A stretch of 40,194 nucleotides of DNA from Klebsiella phage vB_KM5a1-KLB24: the sequence record PP554338.1; one strand, 5' to 3'. Below are positions 1-37,753 of the stretch, piece after piece; positions within the stretch are counted from its first letter, which is position 1; the number at the start of each line of letters is the position of its first letter. The translations under genes and the position numbers were made by a program. The notes beneath the pieces are model-generated. The model did not search any database. It saw only the letters and a program-made list of their open reading frames with translations, and was not told the DNA's origin.

Positions 1-2829
1 CTAGAAAGTTTCCCAATTTTCGTAATTGACCATTCGGTTAAGAATGTTGGACATTTCCGGGGTCAGGTATCGCACCACGGAAGGCCCGCCGCGCGGCGTT
101 TTCTTGCGACGGTCAACGATAGGACGAATTCGGATTAATCGCCCCTGTTCGCATAGGTCGCTTACAATCATATCAAATGCGCCCTTATGCGGAAGATTCT
201 GAAAATCGGTTTTGGAACGCAATTCGCGATACGTGAACGGGCGTTGATGTTTGTTCATGTACTCGATAGCGCTACGCGACATTGATTCGTTTTCGTTAGG
301 CGCAATTTTGCGTTTCGCCGTTTCGTAACTATTAATCAAAAGACGTTCAACAATCATGTAAGAAATTTCGACGGCGCGTTTTGTCAGGCGGCGCGAATTC
401 GGGTCGTTCGTCAATTGCCAGATTAAGGCGAAGCGCTTAACCTGCGATTCGAAGCGACGGAAAATCTTTCCAAAAAATTCATCGTTGTTAGCGTAATCCG
501 CCGCAACTTGTCGAATTACAGATAATACCTGTTCGGCGTCACGGTCAATAATTAACTCCGTTACGTTCGGCGTGTCGGTTGCGTTTTCGGTTTCACCAAC
601 GAACATTCCGCCACCCTGATAAACGGATTTAATCATGAAATGCCAACGCTTGAATTCGCTGTATTCCGGCCCGGTCAAATCATCGACTTTCGGTTTTGGC
701 TGCAAGTGGCGTTCAGGAACATCCACCAGCAAGACGCGCGTTAAAAAACCATCTTCGATAATTGCGTTCGTAAGGTTAGACCACATACTTTCATCGGTTG
801 TCATGGACAATAACGACGGGCAAACACGACCTAAATCAACGGTCTTTTTCGTTTTGTCGGAAGCGCCCAACGCCACAACGTTAGCTTTACGCTTAAATCC
901 TTCGAACCCATCCAGCAGCGCCCTAACAATCCCCTCTTGCGAGGTATTCGCTTTAGGCCCGAATAGTTTTTTCTGGTATTTGCCCCACTCGTCAATAATA
1001 AAAGCGCAAGCGCGGTTAATGCTCAAATGGATATCAAACCCGGTATCGGATTTAATATCCTTTGGCCCTAAGCGCGATTTCTCTTTACAGTCGTCCAGCG
1101 CGTTTATGATTAATCCCAATGTGTGAGATTTACCCGTTGATGTTCCGCCGATACCAATCATATATAAATTGGTTGTTTCGTACTCGACGTGGAATCGACC
1201 AGCAAGAATAATTGAAGGTAACGCGAAAGCGAAGATTAACGACATTTCCGGGTTATAGTATTCCATCGCTTTTGCGTGGTACATATAAGCCGCGTAGAGC
1301 GTCCTATTGCCGCCGAACAATTCCATTACTCGTTTTTGTTCTTCAATTGGCGGTAGCGCGTTTCCGTTTAATTGCGGAACGTTTAGCATTTCGTGAAATT
1401 TCCTATTCAGAATTCCAACGCTTGAAAATTGTTGCTGTGAAGTGAAACCGATATTAGTTGTATAATTCGGATTATCATATTCGACAACAACGCCATTTTC
1501 ATCATAATCCAGCAACGTGGCGTCATTGGCTGGCGCGGCTGGTATGTTGAATAAATCATGTTCGTAATCAATCCCCGACATGTTAGGACGCGCCGACCAA
1601 CGGCGAATCAGGAATGATCGTTGCCACGGCGTAAACCCGGTTTCCGGGAAAATGTTAATTGACGAATCGACGTAAATCGAACCGGGCGGAATGCCGTTAG
1701 AATTGCAATATTCCAGATACTCTTTTTCGCACGGCCTGAACGCGTGTTGATTGGAGTCGATGAACATCGAACCTAATTCGGTTTCTTCCGGTTCCGGCTC
1801 TACGTCCTTTTCGGTAACTTCTAAAAATACGTAATCTTCTGGCGGAATAATTACGCCCTTTTTGCCGGGATTCACGTAACCGTAATCGGCGGCAATTTTG
1901 AATAGCGTCGCAACGGTGCGCCCGCCAGCCGCTTTAAATGTGCGCCACTGGCGGTTAGCCTTATGAGGTTTAAACTTCGAGCCTAACCCGCGCGCAACCC
2001 AATCGAGGAATAACGCGTTCCCCTGCGCGTCAGGCATAGCCGACTGAATCGCCATACCGATTTGAACGCGTTCATCGTGTGACACGGAACCGAAATCGGC
2101 ATAGGTTAATGCTTCCTCGATTTGCTCGTAATCTTCATTATCCAAATCACGCGGCGCGAACGTAAAGCGTTGCGGTACATAATCCGGGGATTGTGATTTC
2201 TTGATAAAGTCAGCGATAGCGCGGGGGAGTGGTGGAATTTTCCCATCAATCAAATTAGCGAATGAAGGCGAATCCCCGTTTTCTTCACGTTCGAATTTAT
2301 AGGTTAATCCCGAAATGTGGTTGGATGGCTCTAACAGGATATACCCGTTAAACTTGAAATCGACGCTAGGGAATTTTTTTCCCAATCCAGCCGGGGCCGC
2401 TTGCATCCAATCGGGAACAGCAAAAATCATATGAACGCCACCGCCGCCCGTTTCTTGGGTGATGGTTGAGAATACACGGCCTTCATTCATATCCCCGAAT
2501 TCTTCGCCTTTGGTAATTTCGAAATCTTCCAAAGAGCGGAACCCGTCGTTTGCGCCTTCGTGTCGGTCAACGTCCACGACGAAAAGCCCGTTCGCTGAAC
2601 AGGCTAACCCGATATTAGCGTTCGGGTAACGCGCCCACCACGCGGAAACCTGCGCCGGGTCATTGCTGGCAATCTTGAAACCATCTTTCAAAATCGGGTG
2701 TTTACCCTGATTCGCCTTAACGCAATCAGGCATCCCGCAAGCGCATTTCCCGTTTTCGTTAATCCACCACAAAGGGAAAATTTTCAATCCGGCTTTCGCG
2801 TATAAATTCGCGAATTCTGATTTTGTCAT
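1..2829 (-). CDS. Bifunctional primase-polymerase / SF3 helicase (prim-pol N-terminal domain plus D5-like P-loop NTPase)
   Basis: 942-aa ORF. The N-terminus has a Cys/His-rich prim-pol-like region (CACGMPDC..DVDRHEG). Walker A GIGGTSTGKS and Walker B FIIDEW are present. ATG at 2827-2829; its stop overlaps the upstream small ORF in an ATGA arrangement. Confidence 0.8.
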   Translation of the reverse strand: MTKSEFANLYAKAGLKIFPLWWINENGKCACGMPDCVKANQGKHPILKDGFKIASNDPAQVSAWWARYPNANIGLACSANGLFVVDVDRHEGANDGFRSLEDFEITKGEEFGDMNEGRVFSTITQETGGGGVHMIFAVPDWMQAAPAGLGKKFPSVDFKFNGYILLEPSNHISGLTYKFEREENGDSPSFANLIDGKIPPLPRAIADFIKKSQSPDYVPQRFTFAPRDLDNEDYEQIEEALTYADFGSVSHDERVQIGMAIQSAMPDAQGNALFLDWVARGLGSKFKPHKANRQWRTFKAAGGRTVATLFKIAADYGYVNPGKKGVIIPPEDYVFLEVTEKDVEPEPEETELGSMFIDSNQHAFRPCEKEYLEYCNSNGIPPGSIYVDSSINIFPETGFTPWQRSFLIRRWSARPNMSGIDYEHDLFNIPAAPANDATLLDYDENGVVVEYDNPNYTTNIGFTSQQQFSSVGILNRKFHEMLNVPQLNGNALPPIEEQKRVMELFGGNRTLYAAYMYHAKAMEYYNPEMSLIFAFALPSIILAGRFHVEYETTNLYMIGIGGTSTGKSHTLGLIINALDDCKEKSRLGPKDIKSDTGFDIHLSINRACAFIIDEWGKYQKKLFGPKANTSQEGIVRALLDGFEGFKRKANVVALGASDKTKKTVDLGRVCPSLLSMTTDESMWSNLTNAIIEDGFLTRVLLVDVPERHLQPKPKVDDLTGPEYSEFKRWHFMIKSVYQGGGMFVGETENATDTPNVTELIIDRDAEQVLSVIRQVAADYANNDEFFGKIFRRFESQVKRFALIWQLTNDPNSRRLTKRAVEISYMIVERLLINSYETAKRKIAPNENESMSRSAIEYMNKHQRPFTYRELRSKTDFQNLPHKGAFDMIVSDLCEQGRLIRIRPIVDRRKKTPRGGPSVVRYLTPEMSNILNRMVNYENWETF
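2223..2237. repeat. Motif copy inside the primase gene
   Basis: Exact copy; encodes IPPLP. Confidence 0.65.
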
Positions 2830-3050
2830 TTTGCCGCCAATCCCGTAAGTGAAATTTCGATTCCGTACATTTTGCCAATTTCGCGCAAGGCTGTAAAATA
2901 TTTTTTGCTAGGGTATATACCCGGCGCGGCGTACCAGTAGTGGATAACTGACTGGTTAAACTTCGGGAAACCCATATCCCGTAAGTGTTTGGCGATGGTT
3001 TCCGGTGATTGTATGTGTTGAATGAGTTTATCGAATTCAGCCGTTACCAT
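2826..3050 (-). CDS. Small hypothetical protein, possible HTH; start moved to the first ATG
   Basis: The track ORF starts at a TTG with no Shine-Dalgarno sequence. The internal ATG (MVTAEFDKL...) is more plausible. It overlaps the primase start, suggesting translational coupling. Confidence 0.4.
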   Translation of the reverse strand: MVTAEFDKLIQHIQSPETIAKHLRDMGFPKFNQSVIHYWYAAPGIYPSKKYFTALREIGKMYGIEISLTGLAAK

Positions 3051-3129
3051 GTTGATTTCCGTTGATGTTGACAAGATTTAAGTTACGTGTAAGCATATCA
3101 CCACCGAACAACAAAGGGAACGGGTAACA

Positions 3130-3837
3130 ATGGCGTATCAAATCAAAAACACGGGTTCGCCTTCGCACCGAAAGTTAGATTTGCTTTCCCACGGATTAGC
3201 GGGAACAGAAAAGACGCTTTCGATAGGTCGGTTCGCGCAAGCCGGGTTTAATCCGTTGGTGATTGCTTGCGATCCAGGCGGAACCACAACGCTAAAGAAT
3301 TTCAATATTCCTTTTATTGAAATCGACAAACCGCAACAACTCTATGAAGTGATAAAAGATATCCATTCCGGTAAACTCAATATTTCGCAATTCGGAATGT
3401 TGTGTTTAGACGGTGCAACCAATCTTTCCTATATGTGCCTAAAGGCTACCGGGGAAAGTGCGAACGACCGCCGTTTAGATTATGCGAATTACTGGATTGG
3501 CTTTCGTCGGCTGGTGGATGAATTGCGCCGAATGCCTTTGCATTTTTACGCCAATTGCTTATCGGCTGAATTAAAGCAGGATTCGAACAAATGGGGGCCA
3601 TACGTAGAAGGCGCAAAATTTTGCGTCCAAATGGCTGGCATGTTTAACGCGGTTATCGCACATCGCCGAATTCAGGACGGCAGTAAAGACCAAAACGGGA
3701 ATTTACTTGCGCCCGTTTATCTGCAAACGCAAGACGACGGATTTTTTAATTGCAAAGAAAGAACGAATAGTTGTAATATGTTCGAACGCGATTTATCGGA
3801 AATCGCGATTAAGATTCTCAACAACCCAAACGCGTAA
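3130..3837 (+). CDS. AAA_24 / Sak4-like recombination ATPase (deviant Walker A GLAGTEKT)
   Basis: 235 aa with a P-loop-like GxxGxEKT. It sits directly upstream of a DUF669-like SSB and a Cas4-like nuclease, the usual phage Sak4-SSB-nuclease arrangement. Confidence 0.45.
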   Translation: MAYQIKNTGSPSHRKLDLLSHGLAGTEKTLSIGRFAQAGFNPLVIACDPGGTTTLKNFNIPFIEIDKPQQLYEVIKDIHSGKLNISQFGMLCLDGATNLSYMCLKATGESANDRRLDYANYWIGFRRLVDELRRMPLHFYANCLSAELKQDSNKWGPYVEGAKFCVQMAGMFNAVIAHRRIQDGSKDQNGNLLAPVYLQTQDDGFFNCKERTNSCNMFERDLSEIAIKILNNPNA

Positions 3838-3847
3838 GGGCTAAATC

Positions 3848-4993
3848 ATGAATAACGGTTTCAACAATAACGGCAATTTCAACAACCAGCAAAACAACGG
3901 CGGGTTCAACAATGGCGGCAACAACCAAAACGGTTTCAACCAGAACGGCGGAAACTTCAACGGCAACAATTCCGGTTTCCAGAACAACCAGCAGGGCGGA
4001 AACTTCCAAAACGGCGGCAACTTCCAGCAGGGCGGAAACTTCAACGGCAACCAAAACAACGGGCCGATGAATCAGCCGGGTCAGTTCGGCGGCAATGGCG
4101 GCGGTCAGTTTAATGGCGGCGGCGCTGTAATGGAAATGGCGGTTGATATGAACGAACAACCGTCTACGGGTTACGGCCTGTTAGACCGTGGGCGCTATTT
4201 GCTCGAAGTCACGGCGGCGGAATACGGCCCGAACAACAACCAAAACGGCTACGTTTTGAAAATTCAAAGCATGGTTCACGGCGGCGATTTTAACGGGCGT
4301 ACCTACTTTGACAATTTCAACCTCCAGCATGAAAGCCAGCAAACGCAACAAATCGCGCAACGTGATTATGCGGCGTTGTGTCTCGCCATTTTCGGTAAAG
4401 GCTACCGCGCCAAAAACCCGAAAGAGCTGGAAGGCAAAATGTATATGGCGGATATTGACCTGTATACGCCAAAACCAAAACGCGGTCAAAACCCTGATAT
4501 GTGGAATCAGGATTCAGAACAGCAGAAACCGGAACCGCGTAACCGCGTAACCGCGTATATGCCGTTTAACGGTCAGCAGGGCCAGCCGCAAGGCCAGCAA
4601 CCGAATAATAACCCAATGAGCCAGCCGCAAGGCGGTGCGGTTCAGCAGAACCACCAGCAACCGCAAAACAACGGCGGCGGTAATTTCCAGCAGGGCGGAA
4701 ATAACAATTTCCAGCAGGGCGGCAACATCCAGAATAACGGGGGTCAGCAAAACGGCGGGTTTTCCCAAAACAACGGCGGGAACAACGGCGGCAACTTCTC
4801 CCATTCCGGGGGTGACGTTTCGCAACAAAACGTCGGAAACCAAAACGCGGGCGGCGATGGAGCATTACAATCTAACCAGCAAGCAAACGGATTTTCCGGG
4901 GATGTAAACCAGCAGAACGGCGGCGGTTTCAATAACGGCGGCAATGGCGGCGGTTTCAATAACGGCAACGGTTCCAACTTCCCGCAAATGTAA
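3848..4993 (+). CDS. DUF669-like single-strand DNA-binding protein with long N/Q/G/F-rich low-complexity N- and C-terminal extensions
   Basis: The central ~150 aa (GYGLLDRGRYLLEVTAAEYGPNNNQNGYVLKIQSMVHGGDFNGRTYFDNFNL...) resembles the DUF669 SSB fold. The flanks are repeats of the GGNFQ / NNGGN type. ORFs on the opposite strand here are low-complexity artifacts. Confidence 0.5.
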   Translation: MNNGFNNNGNFNNQQNNGGFNNGGNNQNGFNQNGGNFNGNNSGFQNNQQGGNFQNGGNFQQGGNFNGNQNNGPMNQPGQFGGNGGGQFNGGGAVMEMAVDMNEQPSTGYGLLDRGRYLLEVTAAEYGPNNNQNGYVLKIQSMVHGGDFNGRTYFDNFNLQHESQQTQQIAQRDYAALCLAIFGKGYRAKNPKELEGKMYMADIDLYTPKPKRGQNPDMWNQDSEQQKPEPRNRVTAYMPFNGQQGQPQGQQPNNNPMSQPQGGAVQQNHQQPQNNGGGNFQQGGNNNFQQGGNIQNNGGQQNGGFSQNNGGNNGGNFSHSGGDVSQQNVGNQNAGGDGALQSNQQANGFSGDVNQQNGGGFNNGGNGGGFNNGNGSNFPQM

Positions 4994-5003
4994 TTCACAA
5001 TTC

Positions 5004-5033
5004 AAAGGGCGGCTAATGTCGCCCTTTTCCTTT
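5004..5033 (+). terminator. Intrinsic terminator-like hairpin after the SSB gene (GGGCG-N8-CGCCC + TTTTCCTTT)
   Basis: A GC stem and T-rich tail on the + strand between 4993 and 5045. It is probably a partial terminator or attenuator. Confidence 0.4.
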
Positions 5034-5044
5034 AAGGGGCGAAA

Positions 5045-6085
5045 ATGATTTTAGATAATGCTTTCTATCGCCAATTACAAAGGGCGTTTCGTTTCGTGGC
5101 GGAAGATAAGCGCGAAATTCGCGCCCCGTCTTTCGCTGATAATGAGTGTAAGCGCGGCTATTGGCTTTCAGCCCGTGGCGCGATTGCTATTGTTCCACAT
5201 CAAAACATCGGCGCTTTTCTCCACTTCGAGGAAATCAACGCTAAAGCGTTCGCCGAAAAATGCCAGCGCGAAAATATTAACGTTCAGTTCGCGGAAGAAA
5301 ATTTAACGTTTGGTCATGGTCACGTTAAATTATATTCTAACCTGATTTGTTATTATGGGAATTATGCCAATTCGCAGAACCCCGCGCGCGCCCGTTATAT
5401 TTCATGCTCGAAAAGCAAGTTCGGGGAAGTGGTGGAAAATGGAATTCCGCGCGCGCTCGAATATCAGGCAATGATTATTATGGCGCTAACCCGAACGCGT
5501 GATTTTCTCTACGTGTTTCATTCAGTGCAAACGGGGCAATTTAAATTCATCGAAATTAAATACGATGAAAAATTGGCGATGGAAGTTTGGGAAACGGCAA
5601 ACGCCGGGGTCGAGTCGGTAGATATTCCGCCGCACTTGCCGGAAATTGGCGGGAAGATTCACCCTAAATGTGCGGATTGCGAATTTAGCGCCGCTTGTTT
5701 AGCGCCTGAAATCCCCGCGCCAACTTGCCGCGCTTGTCGTCATGTTGTGTTAGGGCCGAACGGTTATATTGCTTGCGGTGCGCAAAATAACTTTAACCTT
5801 AGTCCTGATATGATTTTGAACCTTCACAAATGCGAATACCATCGTTATAACGCCGGGTTAATTGCGACTTGGGCGCAACCGGAAGGGCGCACCGATGCGA
5901 ACGAATGGGTTTATTCTAATTTACTGAATGGCGGAAAATTCGTAAATGGCTCTACCACTCCCGGCGCTTATTCGTCATATCAGATGAATAACATCGAAGG
6001 GAATAACCCGGCGTCGCTGGTGGGCGACGAAACGTTAAATAAATTAATTCAAATGTTTGACGCAAAATTAGCCGATGATAAATAA
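5045..6085 (+). CDS. PD-(D/E)XK-family nuclease with a 4-Cys Fe-S cluster (Cas4/AddB-like; DUF2800-type)
   Basis: 346 aa. It has an N-terminal Cys (ADNECKRGYW) plus CADCEFSAAC (C-x2-C-x5-C), the iron-staple signature of Cas4/AddB nucleases. It lies in the recombination module. Confidence 0.5.
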   Translation: MILDNAFYRQLQRAFRFVAEDKREIRAPSFADNECKRGYWLSARGAIAIVPHQNIGAFLHFEEINAKAFAEKCQRENINVQFAEENLTFGHGHVKLYSNLICYYGNYANSQNPARARYISCSKSKFGEVVENGIPRALEYQAMIIMALTRTRDFLYVFHSVQTGQFKFIEIKYDEKLAMEVWETANAGVESVDIPPHLPEIGGKIHPKCADCEFSAACLAPEIPAPTCRACRHVVLGPNGYIACGAQNNFNLSPDMILNLHKCEYHRYNAGLIATWAQPEGRTDANEWVYSNLLNGGKFVNGSTTPGAYSSYQMNNIEGNNPASLVGDETLNKLIQMFDAKLADDK

Positions 6086-7697
6086 TAACTTAATCGAATA
6101 TCGTGATTATCAGGGCGAAGCAATTAACGATACCCTGAACTATTGGGAAAAGGAAGATTGGCGGTCGCCGATTATCGAAGCGCCTACGGGGTCGGGCAAA
6201 TCGATAATTGTCGGCGGCGTTGTTGTGGAGGCAATGCGACGTTACCAAACCAAATTACGGTCGGTTATTATTGTCCCGTCTAAAGAATTATGCATTCAGA
6301 ACGCGGAAAAACTCGAAAAGCTGGCCCCGCCCGGTGTGTCAGTTGACGTTTATTCGGCATCGGTAGGGCGCAAAAACGCCCTTGCGGATATCGTTTGTTG
6401 TACCATCGGGAGCATTCGAAGCAAGGCCGCCGAATTCGGGCATCGCGATATTATCGGCATTGATGAATGTCACCGCGTCAGCCCGGACGGAAAGGGGGAT
6501 TATTGGGAATTCATAGACGGGATGATAACGTTAAAGCGTAAGTTTCGTTTATTCGGATTAACCGCAACCCCTTATCGCGGTAATGGCGTTTGGATTACCG
6601 ACGGCAAGCGCCCCGCATTTCATGGTTTTAGCCATAGAATTAAAATTATGGAAATGCTGGAGCGTGGTTTTTTATCTCCGCTGGTAATTCCGGGCGAAGA
6701 AATCAGGACGCGCATTAATACCGATGGAGTAGAGAAATCAGGATATGATTTTAAAATCGACCAGTTGGCGGCGCGAACCGCTAAATACTTAGTAACGGCG
6801 GCAGATGAAGCGATTCATCTTGCGGCGAACCGGAATAAATGGATTGCGTTTCTTCCAGACGTTCAGACCGCTAACGACTTCGCAAAAATCCTTAATGCGA
6901 AAGGCGTTCCGTCAGGCGTGGTAACTGGTGAAACCCCGGACGCCGAAAGGGAATATTTAATTGAACAGTTTAAGCGCGGCAACCTGCAATGTTTAATTAC
7001 TGTTTTGGCTTTATCAACCGGGTTTGACGTTCCAGATATTGATTGTATTTTGTGGTTGCGCTCCACGCATTCGCCCGTTTTATATGTTCAGGGTGCGGGG
7101 CGTGGTTTGCGAATTGCCCCCGGAAAGGCTAATTGCTTATGGCTGGATTTTACCGATACGACGGAACGTTTAGGGCCGCTCGATAAAATTACGGGCCGGA
7201 AGAAAAAGCGCAAGGCTAACGACCACGCGCCGTGCGTTATTTGTGACGATTGCGGCTCTAGCATTATGCCAGCAAGCGCGCTTTATTGCCCGGTATGTGG
7301 TGCGACGTTACGCGAAATTGAGGATTTGGAAGCGCGCTACGCTTCGAACGCCGAAATATTCGCGGGCCTGAACCCGACGCCAATTTTCCCGGTTAGTCAT
7401 ATATCGGTTATGGAGCAAAAGACCACAAACGGCAAATCGTTTTTGATGGTTTATTTTTATAACCAAATGGTCGAGCTATGCCGCGAACCGATATTTTTTA
7501 GCGGGATTGCTATTTCCCAACAATGCGTTAATTTCTGGATTGCGCTAACTGGCGACCATATGGGGCAATACAATAATTACACCGCTTGCGCCAGATACTT
7601 AAAAGAGTATATCGCGTTTGATAAGCGAATGGGGGTCGGCTCGATTCGCGTTGACCGAACTAAAAAATATCCGAAATTACTGGACATTATCCGATGA
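6075..7697 (+). CDS. Superfamily-2 DEAH-box DNA helicase with a C-terminal zinc ribbon
   Basis: Helicase motifs: I APTGSGKS, II GIDECHR, III LTATP, VI QGAGRGLR. The C-terminus has CVICDDCG...CPVCG. Confidence 0.8.
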   Translation: MINNNLIEYRDYQGEAINDTLNYWEKEDWRSPIIEAPTGSGKSIIVGGVVVEAMRRYQTKLRSVIIVPSKELCIQNAEKLEKLAPPGVSVDVYSASVGRKNALADIVCCTIGSIRSKAAEFGHRDIIGIDECHRVSPDGKGDYWEFIDGMITLKRKFRLFGLTATPYRGNGVWITDGKRPAFHGFSHRIKIMEMLERGFLSPLVIPGEEIRTRINTDGVEKSGYDFKIDQLAARTAKYLVTAADEAIHLAANRNKWIAFLPDVQTANDFAKILNAKGVPSGVVTGETPDAEREYLIEQFKRGNLQCLITVLALSTGFDVPDIDCILWLRSTHSPVLYVQGAGRGLRIAPGKANCLWLDFTDTTERLGPLDKITGRKKKRKANDHAPCVICDDCGSSIMPASALYCPVCGATLREIEDLEARYASNAEIFAGLNPTPIFPVSHISVMEQKTTNGKSFLMVYFYNQMVELCREPIFFSGIAISQQCVNFWIALTGDHMGQYNNYTACARYLKEYIAFDKRMGVGSIRVDRTKKYPKLLDIIR

Positions 7698-8017
7698 ATG
7701 TAAACGGTAATAATATGATAATCGACGGGCCGGAATATCTTCACGCGGCCTTAAACGACATGAAGGCATTGAGGCATATTCTGGAGGGGAACCCATTCAC
7801 GAAAGATTACACCAGCGTAAAACGCGAATTAGATTGTCGGATTAAATTTTATGAAGGCTTAGTATCTAATTTGCGCTGTATTAATTGTTTTCACTATCGA
7901 AGCGAAACCGCGTCGCCGATGGGCGCTATGTGTAACGTGAACGGGCTTTTCCCGGAAAACATCAAACCGGGCGAATACTTTTGCGGCGCTTATGTGTTTG
8001 ACGACGTTCCGTTTTAA
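7694..8017 (+). CDS. Hypothetical Cys-rich small protein
   Basis: 107 aa. Its ATG overlaps the helicase stop. C-terminal CINCFH...C...C pattern. Confidence 0.45.
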   Translation: MNVNGNNMIIDGPEYLHAALNDMKALRHILEGNPFTKDYTSVKRELDCRIKFYEGLVSNLRCINCFHYRSETASPMGAMCNVNGLFPENIKPGEYFCGAYVFDDVPF

Positions 8018-8058
8018 CTGTAAAATCGTAATTCCGGTTAACTAAAAGAGGCTACAAA

Positions 8059-8916: not shown

Positions 8917-9242
8917 TGGACACTGGAATTTTCAAAAGGGTAAACTTTGATTTCTTTGTTTACCTGATTTACCACAAACGCGAAACCGATATTCGTTACG
9001 TAAAAACGTTTAAGGTTACGGCCCCCGGTCACGTAATAGCGCAAGAGATTGCGCGGGATAATTGCGCCGAATTTATCGAGGGAATCCAGCGCAATAAATT
9101 TCACTGTTACTTTGCTTGCTCAAAGCGCATAGGGGCCGTTTCCAGCGACTTCGAGCGCGGGCGCTGTGATAGTATGGGCGAAGTCGAGATAACCCGCCAG
9201 CAAGCGGAATACTTCGCCAGCCGTAGGCAGATGAACCCATGA
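8913..9242 (+). CDS. Hypothetical protein (start reassigned to MMDTGIF, ATGA overlap with the exonuclease stop)
   Basis: The track ORF begins inside the exonuclease gene. The ATG coupled to the upstream stop is more plausible. Confidence 0.4.
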   Translation: MMDTGIFKRVNFDFFVYLIYHKRETDIRYVKTFKVTAPGHVIAQEIARDNCAEFIEGIQRNKFHCYFACSKRIGAVSSDFERGRCDSMGEVEITRQQAEYFASRRQMNP

Positions 9243-10273: not shown

Positions 10274-10317
10274 TTCTTTAAATCCTCATTCGGGGAAGTG
10301 GTGGAACCGATAAATTC

Positions 10318-14287: not shown

Positions 14288-14307
14288 CCCCCGAACGAAT
14301 CCGGGGG
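14288..14307 (-). terminator. Hairpin CCCCCG-N8-CGGGGG + T5 (minus sense), fused to a motif copy, 20 nt upstream of the J ATG
   Basis: In minus sense: TTCCACCACTCCCCCGGATTCGTTCGGGGGTTTTT, then a Shine-Dalgarno sequence and the ATG. Confidence 0.45.
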
Positions 14308-14317
14308 AGTGGTGGAA
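14303..14317. repeat. Dispersed 15-nt motif copy GGGGGAGTGGTGGAA (intergenic, ~40 nt upstream of J)
   Basis: Exact copy. Others are listed under findings. Confidence 0.7.
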
Positions 14318-18773: not shown

Positions 18774-19533
18774 TTGTCAAAGTCTCCGATTTGATTCGGT
18801 CAATTACCATTTGATGAATTGCCGGGGGAGTGGTGGAATTGCGCCAGATTGAATTACAAAATTTAATCCAAAACTTATCTATAATATCAATCTTTGATTT
18901 GCGATTGGTGATATGGTGAATAAATTCGTTATCACCTAAGTAAATCCCGCAATGGTTCGGAACGCTCGACGCGTAATTAAATAACATCGTGTCGCCCGGT
19001 TGCAGGTCTGCAAGTTCCACGCGACGGAATCCTTCACGCTCGATATTGTCCAGATAAAGATTTTGGCCTTCATCCCACCAATCCGAATCGCGTTTATAGT
19101 TATCCATGCGAACGCCGCACATTGCATAGTAATCCTGCATAATCGAATAACAGTCAGTTACCCCAACAACGTAATCCCGGCCCCGGAATTTTGGAATTGG
19201 CGCGAACGCTTCCGCCGTCCAGTTTGGTTTAATCAACAACCAATCGCCGTCGCGGTTGTCATATTGCGCTATTCGGTCAAATGCCGACAAGTGCGGGAGG
19301 TGATACGCGTCCGGGTGAGAATGGACGACATAAACGATTTCACCCATAGAGCGGGCGGCGTCAGTGTCTAACATATCAATTTCGAATCCGTCGCTACGGT
19401 CGGCGGCGATATTCTGACATTCATAAAATTGATAGTCTCCACCACTCCGGCAAATAATATAACCGCAAATTTCGAATAGCGGCGACATTTTCGCGCGGGC
19501 GATAGCGGTTGCAATAGCGGCTTTTAATTCCAT
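18766..19533 (-). CDS. K: Lambda gpK-like tail tip assembly protein (JAB/MPN + NlpC/P60 domains)
   Basis: JAMM motif VVHSHPD...SAFD. NlpC/P60 Cys (VTDCYS) and His (HCGIYLG...HH). It overlaps gene I by 8 nt, as in lambda. Confidence 0.8.
   Translation of the reverse strand: MELKAAIATAIARAKMSPLFEICGYIICRSGGDYQFYECQNIAADRSDGFEIDMLDTDAARSMGEIVYVVHSHPDAYHLPHLSAFDRIAQYDNRDGDWLLIKPNWTAEAFAPIPKFRGRDYVVGVTDCYSIMQDYYAMCGVRMDNYKRDSDWWDEGQNLYLDNIEREGFRRVELADLQPGDTMLFNYASSVPNHCGIYLGDNEFIHHITNRKSKIDIIDKFWIKFCNSIWRNSTTPPAIHQMVIDRIKSETLTNG
18824..18838. repeat. Motif copy inside the 3' end of the gpK-like gene, ~50 nt upstream of the gpI-like start
   Basis: Exact copy; in K it encodes STTPP. Confidence 0.65.
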
Positions 19534-21641: not shown

Positions 21642-23903
21642 TCAACTACCGTTTGCGCGGTCACGGTCAGATAATTTTTTATCTACAATCGCTTCGGTCA
21701 TGCTTTTTAGCGTTTCCAAATCGTCGGCGGAAATCCCGCTCCCCGTGATATGGTTAATTTGGGTAAATTCGGAAGTTCCACCACTCCCGCCACCGCCGCC
21801 CATTGCTTTTTGCAAATTAGCGTTACTGGTGATTTGCCCGCCTGAACCCGGAACCGTGAATAACTCCGGCCCCTTTTCCCCTACAAGGTAGGTTTTACCG
21901 CCGTACACTGGCCCGCCTTTTTCACGCGCCCCGGCTAACTCGACAACGCCTTGCGCCGCAATTAACGCCGCTTGCGCATAACCCCACGCGGTAATGCTTT
22001 CCGCCGCCGCCATTTGCGCCGCTGGCCCTCCGGGGGTATTCGCCGCCGCCATTACCCCGGCAAGGTTCGCCGCCATAATTGCTTGACCAACTAACATCGC
22101 CTTTTGTGCCAGTGTCGCAACTAACCACGCGGCGGAACCCTGTTCGGCGCTCGATTTCACCACGTCGGCGAATCCGCTTGCTAAATCAATTCCGCGATTA
22201 ACGGTATCGTTATATTTCTGCATTCCCTCCGCTTGTTTGGCGAACATATCGTTACGACCGATATTTTCCGTTTTTTGCGTTAGTGCGTTTCGGCGCTGTT
22301 CATAGTCAATCTGAATCGCCAATAATTGCTCCTGAAAACGCTGTTCGGAAACTAATTTTTGGTCATGTTCATAATTGAGTCTTTCGACGGCTGAACTACG
22401 GTTCATTTCTAAAACGCTGGCGTCGCGGTCAGCCTGAATTTTATGTAATCTTTCCTGATAGTCAGCCTCGGAAAGTAACATTTGTTCATGCTGTGAATTA
22501 AGGCGTTCCATGCGGTTTTGATATACTTGCTCGATATCAGCGCCGTATTTTTGCGTATTAAGCATTTCAACGCCGCGTTGATATTCGCGTTCGCTAACCA
22601 ATCCCTTTTTATGGAATTCGTCTAACTTTTTAAGTTGAATTGCGTAGTTGCGGTCTGCCTTGTCTTGCTGAGTCGCTATATTCGCATCAAGTTGCGTTAA
22701 CCATGCGGCGGCTTGCTCTTTTTGCGCTGCAAACTGTTTAGCCTTTTGCGCGCTATCGTCTTTCGCTGGTTTATTCCATCCACCATCCGGGGCGGCTTTT
22801 TTCGTGATGTTGTCAACGTCGGATTGCATATCCGCAACAACGCCTTTCAAATGGTCTAGACCGTCATATGAAATAACCGGGTCAACGCCCAATTGAATCA
22901 TTCCGTTTCGGATTAAATCGCCGTTATTGCCACCCGTCAGGAATCCGCGAATTGCTTCGCTGAAACCGTCTTTAGTGAAGAATTTAGCAAATGAAGTATT
23001 TTCCCAATCTCCATTCATTAAATCTAACAATTCGTTAATTTCGTCCACGGTAGGGGCCAGAATATTAACTTTCCAGTCGTTGAAATTCGTTTTCAGGGTT
23101 TCAATCTTTCTATCCCATTCCGCGTATTTTGCCGCAACGTCAGACGTTACCCCGACATGTTGATTTGAAATGGCGTTTAACGCGTCCATTTCATTACCAT
23201 ATTGTTGCAGCACTCCGACCAAATGCGAACCGTCCGACGCTAACGTTTCCATCATGTTCGTAATTTCGGCCTGATTCTTTCCGGCGTTTTTCAATTCAAA
23301 GAATGTATGAATTAACGCCTTAATGCCGCCGTTCGTTTGGTTCAAATATTGGTTGTAGTCTTTCATGGAAAGGCCCAACGCTTTCATATCGTCGGCAGGG
23401 CCGGAACCATCGCGGAACGCGTCGCCCAAATGGTCCAATACGTCTTTGTTAATATCGCCGAATTTATCAATCTCCATTCCGGTAGCGATAAACTCTTTTT
23501 TCATTTGCTGCAAATATTCAATACTGGTTCCGGTAGCCGTCGCGACTTGCCGCATTTCACGAACATAATCGGCGTTTGCATTAATCGCCATTACCACCGC
23601 ACCAGCAACGGCAGTTAGCCCACCAGCAATTAAACCGAATGCGGCAAGGTAACGGGCCGCGCCAGCCTCCGCTCCCGCCATAGTGGTTTTAACGCGGTTG
23701 ATTAAATCGTTGATATCGCCAAATGACGAAACGGAAGAATTGCGGAGGCTGTTAAAAACGTCCTCCAGATTTTCCACCCCGTCAGCCATTCCGCGCGTTG
23801 AGTCGTTAATTTTTTTCTTTGCCCGTTGCGTGTTTTCGGCAAGGTTATTAACGACGTTCGACATATTATCGCGCGCGGTTAAAAGCGTATTAATAATCGG
23901 CAT
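21642..23903 (-). CDS. H: Tail tape measure protein
   Basis: 753 aa with long coiled-coil-like segments and a Gly-rich C-terminus. It sits after the G/G-T chaperones and before the M/L/K/I/J-like genes. Confidence 0.8.
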   Translation of the reverse strand: MPIINTLLTARDNMSNVVNNLAENTQRAKKKINDSTRGMADGVENLEDVFNSLRNSSVSSFGDINDLINRVKTTMAGAEAGAARYLAAFGLIAGGLTAVAGAVVMAINANADYVREMRQVATATGTSIEYLQQMKKEFIATGMEIDKFGDINKDVLDHLGDAFRDGSGPADDMKALGLSMKDYNQYLNQTNGGIKALIHTFFELKNAGKNQAEITNMMETLASDGSHLVGVLQQYGNEMDALNAISNQHVGVTSDVAAKYAEWDRKIETLKTNFNDWKVNILAPTVDEINELLDLMNGDWENTSFAKFFTKDGFSEAIRGFLTGGNNGDLIRNGMIQLGVDPVISYDGLDHLKGVVADMQSDVDNITKKAAPDGGWNKPAKDDSAQKAKQFAAQKEQAAAWLTQLDANIATQQDKADRNYAIQLKKLDEFHKKGLVSEREYQRGVEMLNTQKYGADIEQVYQNRMERLNSQHEQMLLSEADYQERLHKIQADRDASVLEMNRSSAVERLNYEHDQKLVSEQRFQEQLLAIQIDYEQRRNALTQKTENIGRNDMFAKQAEGMQKYNDTVNRGIDLASGFADVVKSSAEQGSAAWLVATLAQKAMLVGQAIMAANLAGVMAAANTPGGPAAQMAAAESITAWGYAQAALIAAQGVVELAGAREKGGPVYGGKTYLVGEKGPELFTVPGSGGQITSNANLQKAMGGGGGSGGTSEFTQINHITGSGISADDLETLKSMTEAIVDKKLSDRDRANGS

Positions 23904-24559: not shown

Positions 24560-24574
24560 GGGGGAGTGGTGGAA
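24560..24574. repeat. Motif copy (intergenic, upstream of the terminator and G)
   Basis: Exact GGGGGAGTGGTGGAA. Confidence 0.7.
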
Positions 24575-25690: not shown

Positions 25691-26216
25691 CGGTCGCCCC
25701 CTTTTTAATTAATTTTTGGGTAATATTGCGGCGGGTAATTTCCACCACTTCGCCGCGCTCTTTCGTCACCAGCCTTTCAATAATCGGCCTTCCCGCAAAT
25801 CCGGGATGCATTAATTTACGCTGGTGGCTATTTAAAATTAATCGTCCTTTCTTCGCTTTCTTAATTGTTGCGCCTTTCGCCGTGTAGTGCGGCTTTGTTC
25901 CCCCTTCCAGCCAACGGGCTTTAAATGTATCTGCCATATATTCGGGCGTTCCGCGCGGGCCTGATTTCTTCGAAAAGTAAATTCGGTACGCCGCACCGCC
26001 GCGCGCCTCGTCTTTATTCGATACACCCATTTTCACGCCTTCGCGCGAAAGCCTACCCGTGCGAATTCCCCAACCGCGCCCGACTTCATTTTTAATTTGA
26101 CCATAAATAAAAATTGCAGCGGGGCGCAAGGCTTGCCGCAATTCGCGTTTATCAAGATTATACTCTTTCAGGAGTTTAACCAGTTCGTCAATATTAAAAA
26201 CGTTGTCATTATTCAT
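25677..26216 (-). CDS. HK97 gp10-like head-tail (neck) component
   Basis: 179-aa basic protein within the connector gene set. Confidence 0.4.
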   Translation of the reverse strand: MNNDNVFNIDELVKLLKEYNLDKRELRQALRPAAIFIYGQIKNEVGRGWGIRTGRLSREGVKMGVSNKDEARGGAAYRIYFSKKSGPRGTPEYMADTFKARWLEGGTKPHYTAKGATIKKAKKGRLILNSHQRKLMHPGFAGRPIIERLVTKERGEVVEITRRNITQKLIKKGATDGNS

Positions 26217-26547: not shown

Positions 26548-26548
26548 G

Positions 26549-28196: not shown

Positions 28197-28841
28197 TTAG
28201 ATTGAATTCAATAGGAAGTTTTCGCGAATTTGCGCGCTCTTTGCGTCAATTTCGGTTTCAATTTTACGTGTATTTTCAGCGGAACGCAACGCCGAATTTG
28301 CCACATTATACGCCGGGAAAGTGACCGGACTAACATCAATCACCGATTCGATTTTGGTAATCGAACGGTAAACGGTATCACTTGCGGCATCGTATCGCCA
28401 TTCGTCGCCGTCCTCCGCGACAACAAAACGGAATGAGGATTTATCAACATCACCCCGGCGCATAACTTCAATTACCGTATCACGGATAAATTGAGTATCG
28501 GGGGGAGTGGTGGAATAAAATAATCCGCGTTCGGTAATTTCCAGTTTCAGAGTATTACCGGACATTGAACCTAAAACGATATCGTCGTTATGGTTCCATA
28601 CGGATTTGCACATAGAGAAATCTGCGCCGTCAAATGCCCCGGCCCGGATAGTCTCGACGAAATACCCCAAATTATCAGAAGGGGAGTTAAACACCGCCGC
28701 GTAACCTTCGATTTTCGGAAGTGGGTCATTTTCGCCACCAGCCGAAATCATCGCGGCCCGTAGTTCGTCAGTGGTGTTAAAGGTTCGAACCTCAACACCG
28801 CCCGATTTCAACTTTTCTTGTACTTCCTGAATTCGGCTCAT
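28197..28841 (-). CDS. Prohead protease (HK97 family, S78/U35)
   Basis: The N-terminal EGYAAVFNSPSDNLGYFVETIRAGAF block is typical, and the gene lies between portal and capsid. A motif copy lies within the coding sequence. Confidence 0.75.
   Translation of the reverse strand: MSRIQEVQEKLKSGGVEVRTFNTTDELRAAMISAGGENDPLPKIEGYAAVFNSPSDNLGYFVETIRAGAFDGADFSMCKSVWNHNDDIVLGSMSGNTLKLEITERGLFYSTTPPDTQFIRDTVIEVMRRGDVDKSSFRFVVAEDGDEWRYDAASDTVYRSITKIESVIDVSPVTFPAYNVANSALRSAENTRKIETEIDAKSAQIRENFLLNSI
28500..28515. repeat. Motif copy inside the prohead protease gene
   Basis: GGGGGGAGTGGTGGAA; encodes YSTTPPD in the same frame as the K copy. Confidence 0.65.
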
Positions 28842-32126: not shown

Positions 32127-32147
32127 CGGGGGGAGTGGTGGAACCCC
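32127..32147. repeat. Motif copy in the loop of a GGGGG/CCCCC hairpin, 20 nt upstream of the TerL ATG
   Basis: GGGGGGAGTGGTGGAACCCCC. Confidence 0.7.
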
Positions 32148-33823: not shown

Positions 33824-34168
33824 CTATTCTTTTGCGGTTTTAGCATTATGGCACGTTTCACAAAGTAATTGCAAGTTGTCTAAATCCCAAATCGCACCAC
33901 CTTGCGAAACTGGTTTTATGTGGTCAACGTGATTTCCCGGAACTAACACCCCTTTGGATTTGCAACCCTCGCATAATCCGAAAGCCTTACGAATTACGAC
34001 AATTCGAATTTTCTTCCATCGGGTAGATTGATAAAAGCGGTTCGGGTTTTCAGTCTGGTATGTCTCCCACCCTTTATTTTTGTGCTTAGTGCAATAGCCA
34101 TTGTTGGCGCTGGTGGCTATTCCCGAACAGCCGTTTACGCGGCATTGTCTACCCGGTAGGCTAGGCAT
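33824..34168 (-). CDS. HNH endonuclease (terminase-associated)
   Basis: HNH motif VDHIKP...NLQLLCETCHNAKT. Its position upstream of TerS/TerL is typical of HK97-like cos packaging. Confidence 0.8.
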   Translation of the reverse strand: MPSLPGRQCRVNGCSGIATSANNGYCTKHKNKGWETYQTENPNRFYQSTRWKKIRIVVIRKAFGLCEGCKSKGVLVPGNHVDHIKPVSQGGAIWDLDNLQLLCETCHNAKTAKE

Positions 34169-34499
34169 TTTTACGGAATCCTGTTTCGTGGTCGAATCCC
34201 AAAAGGGTACATAAGCGCATTAAATGAACAACCGGAATCGCCCGTTCGTCACTGGAGCGCCATACACGAACGGTCTGTTCCTTAACATCCAGCAACGCGG
34301 CAATGTCGCGCGTCCTGATTCCCGTTTGCCTTTGGATGCGGGATAACCACGCCCGCCGCTTATGCCCCGGAATGCGATTCTTATTCAGAGTTAGCCGCGT
34401 GACTAACTCCCTTTCTGAAATAAAATAACCGCCCTCGACTTTCTTCATTTGTAAACCCCTTTTCCGTAATAGTTGATTCAAAATAAGTTTTATCAACAT
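34161..34499 (-). CDS. HTH DNA-binding protein (possible regulator or packaging-associated)
   Basis: 112 aa, basic, with a helix-turn-helix-like TRDIAALLDVKEQTVRVW. Confidence 0.45.
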   Translation of the reverse strand: MLIKLILNQLLRKRGLQMKKVEGGYFISERELVTRLTLNKNRIPGHKRRAWLSRIQRQTGIRTRDIAALLDVKEQTVRVWRSSDERAIPVVHLMRLCTLLGFDHETGFRKNA

Positions 34500-34581: not shown

Positions 34582-34851
34582 TCACTTCGGAACAGACCAT
34601 TCAACAAGTTTCTGATAACGCGCCCAACATTCTAAATACATTCGCGAAATAATATCGATATGGGAAATTAATTCCCCGCCGTTTGCACCGTCCGGCGATT
34701 TCGGGCGGAGTGGTGGAATCGGTAAACAGTCAATTGTTATTGATTTCGGCGGGCGTCTTTCCGGCGTATTTATTGATTTGCTGCAACCCGTCATTATCAG
34801 AACAGACAATATTATAAACAGGACGTTTCTTAATTTCATTAAGTTGACCAT
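34582..34851 (-). CDS. Rz1: o-spanin (Rz1-like outer-membrane lipoprotein), embedded in the +1 frame of Rz
   Basis: Lipobox LIMTGC and a Pro-rich mature region. It overlaps the 3' part of the Rz-like gene. Confidence 0.6.
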   Translation of the reverse strand: MVNLMKLRNVLFIILSVLIMTGCSKSINTPERRPPKSITIDCLPIPPLRPKSPDGANGGELISHIDIISRMYLECWARYQKLVEWSVPK

Positions 34852-35116
34852 TTATTGTTATCCCCATTTTGGATAATTTAGATAATATTTCCGCTAATCC
34901 GTACTGAATTTCATTGTCGCGGTCGCGGTCTTGCTGCAATTTCGCCAATTTATCGGCGTTTTCTTTATTGATTTTGTCAATTTCTGCCTTGTTATCCTTC
35001 TTAATTTTCACAATTTCACGGTTCAATTCCACCACTTCCCCGCCTTTTTTGACTCCATAGACGACGGCGGAAACGCCTAAAATCGCAAATACGATACTAA
35101 TAATGATTGCTCTCAT
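34730..35116 (-). CDS. Rz: i-spanin (Rz-like)
   Basis: N-terminal transmembrane helix, then a long charged coiled-coil (KIKKDNKAEIDKINKENADKLAKLQQDRD). Confidence 0.6.
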   Translation of the reverse strand: MRAIIISIVFAILGVSAVVYGVKKGGEVVELNREIVKIKKDNKAEIDKINKENADKLAKLQQDRDRDNEIQYGLAEILSKLSKMGITINGQLNEIKKRPVYNIVCSDNDGLQQINKYAGKTPAEINNN

Positions 35117-35827: not shown

Positions 35828-35830
35828 TTT

Positions 35831-36739: not shown

Positions 36740-37215
36740 TATAAACCCCCTTCCGTTGGTGCGTACAAATCGACAAATTCGTTAGTCTGCCAAACGCCCA
36801 CAGCGTGAATATCTTTAATTACTGGCATATGTGCGGATTGCGTACCCTTCGAAATCTTCATTTCGAATTTAATGGTTGCCACCGTTTCAGGATGGAAGAT
36901 GTTTAATCCCAAAACGCGAATAAACAATTCGTAATCTTTTTTATCTTGCATGAACAGTTTTTTGTAATCGTCCATTGAATAGAATTGTTCGATAATGACG
37001 CGACGGTTAGAAACGTAAACTTTCGCTTTAACCGCGTCATGTTCCGGCGCTGGCTCGATACGCATCGCGCAAGCGTAAGAACCTGAAACCAGTTCGGCGG
37101 CGTTGTCGTTCCCGGTTCCTTTGTCGCGGGTGTATTCTTTGATAACCTTCTCTAACGCACCCTCTAAAACCTTGCAACGCGTCTTTAGCCCTTCAACTTC
37201 CTGAATCAAATTCAT
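36739..37215 (-). CDS. Hypothetical protein (first gene after the control region)
   Basis: 158 aa; GAGGGT Shine-Dalgarno sequence. Confidence 0.45.
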   Translation of the reverse strand: MNLIQEVEGLKTRCKVLEGALEKVIKEYTRDKGTGNDNAAELVSGSYACAMRIEPAPEHDAVKAKVYVSNRRVIIEQFYSMDDYKKLFMQDKKDYELFIRVLGLNIFHPETVATIKFEMKISKGTQSAHMPVIKDIHAVGVWQTNEFVDLYAPTEGGL

Positions 37216-37273
37216 GGTTTACCCTCGATTGGTTTTACCGTAATGGCGAATTGTTCCACCACTCCCGCCGATG

Positions 37274-37302
37274 ATTATCTAACAATTTCCGCGTTTCCGC
37301 AA
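37274..37302 (-). promoter_or_regulatory. Candidate sigma70-like promoter TTGCGG-N17-GATAAT (minus sense) with tandem TACACCCC repeats upstream
   Basis: Hexamers at correct spacing. GGGGTGTATAA / GGGGGTGTAAAAA (37308-37331) lies at about -40 to -65. A motif copy (37254-37269) lies at about +1 to +20. Confidence 0.35.
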
Positions 37303-37307
37303 TTGTT

Positions 37308-37609
37308 GGGGTGTATAAGGGGGTGTAAAAAGTTATAAAACAGTATCATTTTGACTTTTTCCCTTTACCGTTCAATCACTTACGGCTGATTTTCGTTGTT
37401 TTTCGTTTTCTAATAGGTACTTCCACCGAACCCGGTTCCCCCTACCCTAGAAATTCACAATTAAAAGGGGTGTGTATATGGTAAGGAGTTCTCTAGAAGG
37501 AAAGCATAGTTAAATGCCAAAACATACAGTAAGTATATGAATATATAGATATATATAACTATATATATAACTTCTTTTAACTACTATCTAAAAAGGGGTA
37601 TATACACCC
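37308..37609. repeat. Iteron-like repeats GGGGTGT(G)TATA x4 (three direct, one inverted) in the non-coding control region
   Basis: Copies at about 37308-37318, 37319-37331, 37467-37481 and 37594-37609 (inverted, forming a short hairpin). An AT-only tract (37535-37571) and the palindrome ACTTACAGTAAGT (37639-37651) lie between them. Confidence 0.5.
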
Positions 37610-37714
37610 CTAGAATTCAGGATTTTGTCACCTCCTTAGCTTTCAACAACTTACAGTAAGTCATTGAAACGTATAGGAAAGTTAAAATCGCTAATTTAAT
37701 TAATTCCAGAAATG

Positions 37715-37738
37715 AAAAAGCCCGACAAATCGCCGGGC
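37715..37738 (-). terminator. Intrinsic terminator GCCCG-N9-CGGGC + T5 (minus sense), preceded by a motif copy, ending the early gene block
   Basis: In minus sense: stop, then TTCCACCACTCCCCC, GCCCGGCGATTTGTCGGGC and TTTTT. Confidence 0.55.
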
Positions 37739-37753
37739 GGGGGAGTGGTGGAA
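37739..37753. repeat. Motif copy (intergenic, adjacent to the early-block terminator)
   Basis: Exact copy. Confidence 0.7.

Follow-up and report, generated by a model that had tools for sequence, protein, structure and literature searches.

Background

Dispersed words that are both exact and strand-specific are rare in phage genomes and mostly unexplained. Here, we describe such a word, a 15-nt motif built on a 10-nt core, in Klebsiella phage vB_KM5a1-KLB24 (hereafter KLB24), of which a stretch of 40,194 nucleotides (sequence record PP554338.1; the window, in what follows) was analysed as a whole, and we compare it with the template words of primase-polymerases (PrimPols) and with the nick words found in some virion DNAs. 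From these systems the kind of signal is known in outline, whereas the length, the number, the even spacing and the origin-centred orientation of the KLB24 word are new. The motif is not mentioned in the publications on these phages that were consulted, and its core occurs in no phage paper among the full-text matches listed.

Regarding the primases, the NrS-1 PrimPol relies on the 8-nt word TTTGGTTA and likewise on GTG(A/G), GTGG being one of its most efficient words, and it initiates at the first base 5′ of the site; two such 8-nt sites, one on each strand near the genome centre, were proposed as the origin (PMC8718748, PMC7102993). pRN1 ORF904 needs 5′-GTG-3′ in the template, a word that its helix-bundle domain binds (PMC8718748, PMC7102993), and this domain, PriCT-1, is reportedly homologous to PriCT-2 (PMC5862659). 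Regarding nicked DNA, phage tf carries on one strand, despite convergent transcription, 14 copies of the 9-nt word TACT/RTGMC, each of which is a ligatable nick; one-mismatch variants of the word are rare, and its copies are unevenly distributed and take similar positions across the LUZ24 group (PMC3517423). The role of the nicks of T5, phiKMV and tf was called unknown in the same 2012 paper (PMC3517423).

Results and discussion

Copies of the motif in the window

Scanning both strands of the window with GGGGGAGTGGTGGAA, allowing up to two mismatches, returned 14 copies, while 0.03 were expected by shuffling and none of the 100 shuffled controls reached that number. The claim of the first-pass annotation, which had reported at least 14 over-represented copies from inspection of the letters, is therefore borne out, and the 14 copies moreover share an exact 10-mer core, AGTGGTGGAA. 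Ten copies lie on the plus strand (the majority strand) and four on the minus strand, half of them are exact 15-mers, and the pentamer 5′ of the core is always G-rich (GGGGG, GGGGA, GCGGG, GGCGG or GGCGA); the strand proposed below as the template carries 5′-(C)GGGGG-AGTGGTGGAA-3′. The copies are as follows (KLB29 and Rovert are relatives treated in the next section):

2223..2237, plus strand: exact 15-mer inside the PrimPol gene, overlapping the conserved peptide GK(I/V)PPLP
5423..5437, plus strand: copy flanked by GGGGA in the gene for the PD-(D/E)XK exonuclease, which belongs to the plus-strand replication operon; majority orientation despite the reversed transcription
10292..10306, plus strand: intergenic copy, 18 nt before the start of a 63-aa gene
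14303..14317, plus strand: intergenic copy, 5 nt past the stop of the 949-aa tail gene, overlapping a terminator stem, 40 nt before the start of J
18824..18838, plus strand: copy inside tail gene K
24560..24574, plus strand: intergenic copy, 7 nt past the tail-tube stop and followed by a hairpin
28501..28515, plus strand: copy inside the prohead protease gene
32129..32143, plus strand: intergenic copy in the gap between TerS and TerL
34704..34718, plus strand: copy with a GGCGG flank inside the overlapping spanin genes
37739..37753, plus strand: intergenic copy marking one edge of the large non-coding, AT-rich region, 7 nt past the stop of the last early gene
37254..37268, minus strand (minority): copy at the opposite edge of the AT-rich non-coding region, forming a perfect 14-nt inverted repeat with 37739-37753
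35027..35041, minus strand (minority): copy inside the i-spanin gene, not kept in KLB29
25740..25754, minus strand (minority): copy inside a 179-aa gene (peptide EVVE), kept in KLB29 and found at the same place in Rovert
21776..21790, minus strand (minority): copy inside the tape-measure gene (peptide SGG), kept in KLB29

These positions agree within 2 nt with those first given by eye, except for the copy then placed at 35017. The flanks of the 14 copies are unrelated to one another, which means that the copies are independent sites and that the alternative considered at first, a few duplicated segments, does not account for them. One-mismatch versions of the core occur at chance level (2 observed vs ~2.3 expected), which points to a very sharp constraint on the 10-mer; the two additional partial copies of the first-pass annotation, at 19437 (three mismatches) and 31988 (the core with one mismatch), belong to this chance-frequency class.

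Six of the 14 copies are intergenic and eight lie within genes, although non-coding DNA makes up only 6.5% of the window (binomial P=1.5e-4). The earlier description of the motif as lying mostly upstream of late genes was thus overstated, while an intergenic enrichment is still present. The intergenic copies lie 18-49 nt 5′ of the next start codon and 4-7 nt 3′ of the preceding stop codon, and we read this enrichment as the word being placed where its cost is least.

Conservation across the family

KLB24 is a siphovirus of ~40 kb that belongs to the Carrot-like cluster; its group was described as 'Ca. Rivulusviridae' (PMC11845039), and Carrot-like phages were reported with cohesive ends (PMC9119093). 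The first 25 kb of the window are 97% identical, over 99% of their length, to Klebsiella phage vB_KM5a1-KLB28, and the other relatives (KLB29, KLB5, Dickeya phage Sucellus and 'Carrot-like' Serratia phages) were located via the PrimPol. The comparison set consisted of nine complete genomes, from phages of Klebsiella, Serratia and Dickeya hosts, and of the metagenomic or IMG/VR members L199/L208, L200, L209 and L210. Exact core copies in the complete genomes were counted as follows:

KLB24, KLB28 and KLB29: 14 each
KLB5: 12
Sucellus and Rovert: 10 each
Stoker, Bigdog and Ulliraptor: 15 each

The exact core AGTGGTGGAA thus occurs 10-15 times in every one of the nine complete genomes, where ~0.08 copies would be expected, it is also contained in the metagenomic and IMG/VR members, and it is the most over-represented 10-mer, alone or tied, in every member examined. 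Nucleotide similarity between these genomes is near zero (the published intergenomic similarity of KLB5 and KLB24 is ~5%) and PrimPol identity falls to 32-42%, yet the core is unchanged. The 5-6 nt on its 5′ side are 72% G+C, compared with 42-47% genome-wide and 34% in the 3′ flank, and they differ by genus: CGGGGG in KLB24, KLB28 and KLB29, and CGCGCA or GGGGCA in KLB5, Stoker and Bigdog.

The first-pass annotation had tied its interpretation to conservation in relatives, and the motif is indeed kept at orthologous positions. Between KLB24 and KLB29, identity at such positions reaches 94% in the 15-nt motif as against 64% in the 60 nt on either side, and KLB29 keeps all ten majority-strand copies of KLB24, some of them where the flanks no longer align. 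As an example, the copy at 2223 has an orthologous copy in KLB28, KLB29, Sucellus, Rovert, Bigdog and L199. About 80% of the copies family-wide lie inside genes, with only 1 of 10 intergenic in Rovert and ~0-1 of 10 in Sucellus. These gene-internal copies occupy all three reading frames and encode differing peptides (STTPP, PPLP, FHH, EVVE, SGG, WWK), and the copy of tail gene K, at nucleotide 695 of the gene in the KLB24 group, lies at nucleotides 612-720 in other genera and in a different frame. The use of all three frames and of different peptides indicates that the constraint bears on the nucleic acid and not on the protein. The strand split ranges from 6:4 to 11:4 in the relatives, and the minority copies are full motifs that are mostly conserved.

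Beyond the family, ~80 metagenomic PrimPol loci were scanned, and the motif was found only in the true family members (L199/L208, L200, L209, L210). Exact scans of IMG/VR with the 15-mer and with GGCAAGTGGTGGAA gave only single chance matches, and the IMG/VR loci with two core copies, which show neither the G/C flank nor a homologous protein, were set aside as chance or protein repeats. Note that closely spaced inverted pairs of the motif, 20-25 nt apart, are present in Stoker (L073, 1-60), Bigdog (L074, 1051-1090) and Sucellus (L070, 837-881).

Strand polarity and spacing

In the window, the late and early genes are encoded on the minus strand, and a single replication and recombination operon (3130-9610) runs in the opposite direction, on the plus strand. 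The motif reads TTCCACCACT on the sense strand of the structural genes for ~70% of its copies in every genome. The copies that fall in the reversed operon are informative, since they keep the genome-wide DNA-strand orientation in nine of 10 cases over seven genomes (one copy each in KLB24, KLB28, KLB5 and Rovert, two each in Stoker and Bigdog, and one of two in KLB29). Their polarity thus follows the DNA strand, they take the opposite sense in their own mRNA, and this argues against readings in which the motif acts as a promoter or at the RNA level.

Indeed, the first-pass annotation had listed among the candidate roles a phage-specific promoter or activator site and a boxA-like antitermination or processing element paired with downstream hairpins in the late mRNA, and we now regard both as very improbable. 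They would account for the five intergenic copies, 18-49 nt ahead of start codons, whose late-mRNA sense is TTCCACCACTCCCCC, for the three copies that precede terminator-like hairpins, and for the minority copy at 37254, which follows a −10-like TAGATAAT. However, the copies of the reversed operon are conserved and fit the general spacing despite their opposite mRNA sense, and copies in relatives such as Rovert and Sucellus are mostly gene-internal; this polarity, together with the use of all three frames inside genes, contradicts a promoter or activator role. Except for a weak match upstream of 37254, no promoter match was found at the motif copies, and the motif does not resemble the −35/−10 consensus. 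As for a boxA-like element, most annotated terminators lack the motif and most copies lack a terminator, only ~3 of the 10 majority copies abut one, DNA folding energies are at background level 5′ of, 3′ of and across the motif, so that no excess of structure accompanies it, and no Rfam family matches in the window. In addition, Pfam and PHROG scans of the window proteins revealed no RNA polymerase and no sigma factor, in agreement with what had been noticed from the open reading frames, nor any conventional DNA polymerase, DnaG-type primase or methyltransferase.

The copies are also evenly spaced. Around the circle, the 10 majority-strand copies of the window lie 2.6-5.7 kb apart with a coefficient of variation (CV) of 0.23, an evenness equalled by no more than 1 in 10,000 random placements. 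The same was observed for the majority strand throughout KLB24, KLB28, KLB29, Stoker and KLB5 (CV 0.23-0.33, with P from below about 1e-4 to 2e-3; 0.25-0.33 for KLB29, Stoker and KLB5); a spacing of 3-6 kb was also seen in the fragments L210 and L209, and where Bigdog and Sucellus have larger gaps, a one-mismatch copy falls into each of them. This over-dispersion suggests that the word serves a function required at intervals along one strand. Altogether, the motif is a real, strongly constrained and family-wide DNA-level signal. In this general form, the strand polarity, the even spacing and the family-wide conservation support the third role suggested at first, in which the DNA would be nicked, modified or bound by a protein at the motif.

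A duplex binding site for a phage protein would be one such DNA-level role, with the motif serving as a stoperator-like roadblock, in compaction or in helicase loading, and being bound either by the PrimPol's C-terminal domain or by the following protein, which the first-pass annotation had already named as a candidate reader:

34161..34499, minus strand: small helix-turn-helix (HTH) protein, whose gene overlaps an HNH endonuclease gene by 8 nt; alternative candidate reader of the motif

This HTH protein is only 26-30% identical family-wide, yet the Q-T-x-R of its putative recognition helix is invariant, and it weakly matches CII-like regulators in PHROGs. Together with the intergenic enrichment in the window and with the several copies placed between a stop codon and a terminator, these features speak for such a site. 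Stoperators, the 13-bp asymmetric repressor sites of cluster A mycobacteriophages, occur in tens of copies per genome, follow transcription and lie in the short intergenic gaps of temperate phages that have a repressor. The KLB24 motif resembles them as an asymmetric word of 13-16 bp with many dispersed copies that often lie near stop or start codons. Sites of the stoperator type proper were rejected, given that orientation here follows the DNA strand, that most copies lie in genes and that no lysogeny module was found. More generally, we consider a duplex binding site unlikely, as orientation is independent of transcription, ~80% of the family copies are within genes, ten invariant base pairs without tolerated variants would be unusually sharp for an HTH operator, the even spacing has no obvious reason under this hypothesis, and no integrase or lysogeny module was found among the window genes.

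Orientation of the copies around the AT-rich region

Two copies of the motif border the following region, on opposite strands:

37215..37761, no strand: largest non-coding region of the window, candidate replication origin, with the GC minimum and iteron-like repeats

In all nine complete genomes, the lowest-GC 80-mer lies inside the largest non-coding region, and in the window it corresponds to a TA-repeat tract at 37534-37576. This tract is surrounded by four or five iteron-like GGGGTGTATA(T/A) repeats in both orientations, among them those at 37308, 37320, 37469 and 37599. The iteron-like repeats of the equivalent regions differ between phages, GGGGTGTATA being that of the Klebsiella phages and GTATATATGTATATA that of Sucellus. 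On this composition and these repeats, which amount to iterons around a putative unwinding element, we take 37215-37761 as a candidate origin. Runs of GGGGAGGGGG / CCCTCCCC were also seen in the equivalent regions of KLB5 (L071, 35560-35640), Rovert (L072, 32500-32780) and Stoker (L073, 36770-36790), and their counterpart in the window is TAGGGTAGGGGGAACC at ~37440.

The orientation of the motif switches across this region. Approached from one side, the last copy belongs to the majority strand in 9 of 9 genomes; beyond the region, the first copy met belongs to the minority strand in 8 of 9 genomes, as it does in L199. An inverted pair that points inwards was seen around the GC-minimum region in all lineages. 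Furthermore, all minority-strand copies but one (in KLB29) are found within 0-0.53 genome lengths on that same side. By label permutation, this confinement gives P values of 0.13-0.29 per genome and of ~1e-4 jointly over five lineages, the joint value being based on a threshold chosen post hoc and not corrected for shared ancestry.

A priming-site reading

The first copy of the motif lies within the gene of an enzyme that the first-pass annotation had not considered as a reader, having proposed the HTH protein and the small early proteins:

1..2829, minus strand: 942-aa PrimPol with archaeo-eukaryotic primase (AEP) Prim-Pol, PriCT-2 helical and P-loop helicase-like domains and a C-terminal region; sole polymerase-like gene and proposed reader of the motif

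The protein matches Pfam Prim-Pol (E=7e-28) and PriCT_2 (E=1e-7), in addition to a P-loop domain, and these three domains are kept across the family (seven members compared). The gene set for replication and recombination comprises, besides this PrimPol, an SF2 helicase, a PD-(D/E)XK exonuclease, a DnaQ-like exonuclease, AAA_24, DUF669 and a VRR-NUC nuclease. The DnaQ/PolB-exonuclease-like protein, of 285 aa (8059-8916), is separate from the PrimPol. The replicase may be the PrimPol itself or a recruited host polymerase.

We tentatively read the motif as a strand-specific replication signal that would act as a hard-wired start site for this AEP PrimPol. We infer this mechanism, and the link between motif and priming, from sequence comparison and from the analogy with the PrimPols described above. 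As in NrS-1 and pRN1, KLB24 encodes a PrimPol with a helical PriCT domain, and the core, A-GTGG-TGG-AA, consists of two overlapping GTGG words, a match that is weak on its own since GTG is short. When the G-rich strand is exposed as single-stranded DNA, the PriCT-2 domain would bind the invariant core and the catalytic domain would begin a primer on the first bases 5′ of it. If so, the G/C-rich flank, variable between genera, would be the primer-coding segment, and it would give a stable short hybrid between a C-rich primer and its template. An invariant core next to a G/C-rich but variable 5′ flank is what one would look for if the protein holds the core and copies the flank into the primer, and a primer start 5′ of the word is also the case for NrS-1.

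The inverted pair around the AT-rich region would find its place in the same scheme. As templates, the copy at 37739 (plus strand) would direct synthesis to lower coordinates and the copy at 37254 (minus strand) to higher ones, both into the AT-rich tract, and the pair could thus provide the two leading-strand starts of a bidirectional origin, in the way that NrS-1 has one site per strand. The majority copies, spaced by ~4 kb, would serve as lagging- or displaced-strand starts for a fork that rounds the whole circle, later in a rolling-circle mode, and the four or five minority copies, present only in the half-genome across the origin, would serve the opposite fork of early theta replication. 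With more reserve, we suggest that the genome of the whole family might be viewed as a replication programme, in which an evenly spaced, strand-specific 16-nt code is read by the PrimPol, perhaps as sole replicase, the inverted pair being the origin, with starts every ~4 kb on one strand and starts on the other strand only in the sector of the opposite fork.

Strand-specific priming signals of another type are the ssi or primosome assembly sites, such as ssiA and ssiB of RSF1010, which are read by the AEP primase RepB′ and consist of hairpins of ~40-100 nt in one or two copies. The KLB24 motif would share with them the principle of a strand-specific signal on a single-stranded template for a dedicated primase, and the inverted pair recalls the origin core of RSF1010; it differs as a linear 16-mer without excess of structure, present in 10-15 copies.

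Several observations weigh against the priming-site reading. An invariant part of 10 nt (16 with the flank) exceeds the known primase words, which have 3-8 nt, and 10-15 evenly spread copies contrast with the NrS-1 8-mer, which is present twice. Identity in the N-terminal region of the PrimPol has dropped to 33-42%, while the core stayed wholly unchanged. Distant PrimPol phages (Enterobacter ST22, Vibrio J2, Vibrio MAG7, L201 and L219) carry no comparable motif, and both candidate readers are confined to the family, so that the association with the PrimPol is inseparable from that with other core genes. If the G-rich strand is the template, the majority orientation implies a long-range fork running head-on to late transcription. 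The candidate origin could be just a promoter region, and the intergenic excess of six of the 14 window copies is also compatible with a regulatory site. Neither the single PrimPol sequence nor a family profile matched any PDB sequence, the NrS-1 and pRN1 proteins included, a large protein-database search with PrimPol residues 1-335 gave only three weak matches, and the AlphaFold2 model of the N-terminus (from a four-sequence alignment) had a predicted local distance difference test (pLDDT) score of 51, too low for a fold comparison.

Possible nicking and cohesive ends

The main alternative, though rather more doubtful, is that the copies mark the sites of a nicking system, by which the virion DNA would carry fixed single-strand interruptions, as in T5/BF23, phiKMV-like phages and tf. 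The enzyme could be the following one, perhaps guided by the HTH protein:

33824..34168, minus strand: HNH endonuclease near the terminase genes; candidate nickase if the motif is a nick site

The pattern of phage tf is the closest that has been published for a genome. Nick sites in T5/BF23, phiKMV-like and tf/LUZ24 phages consist of ~4-14 exact copies of a 9-20 nt word with a strand bias independent of transcription, they are conserved within a phage group, and very few near-variants exist, all of which recalls the KLB24 motif. The overlapping HTH and HNH genes are both core genes, the Q, T and R of the HTH protein are invariant, and the GenBank record of Stoker begins 8 nt before its inverted motif pair. 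A further, weak hint is that short reads by themselves did not suffice to assemble KLB24 and KLB28 (PMC11845039).

However, the known nick words lie on one strand only, whereas ~30% of the copies here are on the other strand, including pairs 35 bp apart in Sucellus; the nicks of tf are uneven, while the spacing here is significantly even; and nicking would give no account of the orientation switch, of the confinement of the minority copies to half of the genome or of the G/C-rich, primer-like flank. The nick phages also have terminal repeats and their own DNA polymerases, in contrast with the cohesive ends and the single PrimPol found here. An HNH gene beside the terminase usually serves end cleavage in cohesive-end (HK97-type) phages. 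The HNH gene of KLB24 sits where such phages keep this nuclease for the cohesive-end site (cos), and the inferred cos lies just downstream, ~60-70 nt from the gene, without the motif. The motif was accordingly rejected as a part of cos, since the records of Bigdog, Ulliraptor and Sucellus end ~60-70 nt after HNH in sequence that lacks it. Similarly, the HTH protein was tried as a discriminating marker and dropped, because it is confined to the same family, which makes the HTH-HNH pair not separable from the PrimPol. Note that the records of close relatives of Stoker start or end ~68 nt after HNH. Priming and nicking are not exclusive, as fixed priming sites could leave unsealed junctions.

Relation to Chi

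We consider it quite unlikely, even more so than a duplex binding site, that the phage uses the motif as a Chi of its own, a polar word restraining a helicase-nuclease (either the phage PD-(D/E)XK exonuclease with the SF2 helicase or a host enzyme), so that the tails of rolling-circle replication are protected or phage DNA is recognised as self. The motif does resemble the Chi of bacterial chromosomes in being over-represented and polar, with about one copy per 3-4 kb and ~70% of the copies on one strand; the core and Chi, GCTGGTGG, both contain TGGTGG; and the exonuclease and helicase genes (5045-7697) are adjacent, overlapping and core genes. On the other side, the corresponding AGTGGTGG of the core and enterobacterial Chi disagree at 2 of their 8 positions, the invariant core is longer, the word is specific to one phage family over three host genera, its orientation is organised about the AT-rich region and not about the inferred cos ends, and we know of no sequence-regulated phage nuclease of the Chi type.

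Canonical Chi itself is abundant in some of these phages and coexists with the motif in three of them. The window holds 22 Chi sites from 723 to 40171 (nine on the plus and 13 on the minus strand) against ~1 expected, KLB28 holds 23 and KLB29 18, while 0-2 were counted in KLB5, from the same host, and in the phages of Serratia and Dickeya. By these counts, the excess is a gain, specific to this lineage, of the host's Chi sites by a virulent phage. Motif copies are about as numerous whatever the Chi content, and the motif is thus no substitute for Chi.

Implications

Since the word is common to a family spanning three host genera, has a sharp core and comes with a candidate enzyme encoded in the same genome, its function is directly testable. 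If the priming-site reading is true, the specificity of AEP primase-polymerases would extend from 3-8 nt to 10-16 nt, the copies would be the first long, genome-wide and hard-wired priming sites, and KLB24 would show how a phage without a conventional polymerase or a DnaG-type primase organises discontinuous synthesis. Fork directions and the switch from theta to rolling-circle replication could then be read straight from the sequence, and nicks in virion DNA, if present, could be unsealed junctions at the starts, which would link the puzzle of phage nicks to priming. In addition, the motif provides a sequence signature for finding the family in metagenomes and a handle for engineering Klebsiella and Serratia phages.

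Repeated words in more distant phages

Repeated words were also seen in other PrimPol phages. A repeated AGTGTTGGAA in L202-L206 was examined as an analogous motif and discarded, as these loci represent one phage whose two copies lack conservation. Vibrio phage J2 (L196, NC_027393), which encodes a PrimPol-type primase, has the 16-nt palindrome GTGTCGACGTCGACAC eight times in its 39.5-kb genome. Finally, a 17.9-kb locus (L217, metagenome contig Ga0302119_10000098) encodes a distant full-length PrimPol relative with 31% identity and contains two dispersed words, TTGCGTCGAGTG in eight copies (at most one mismatch, seven of them on one strand) and CGCGCTCGAC in 11 copies, which may represent an analogous system with a different word.

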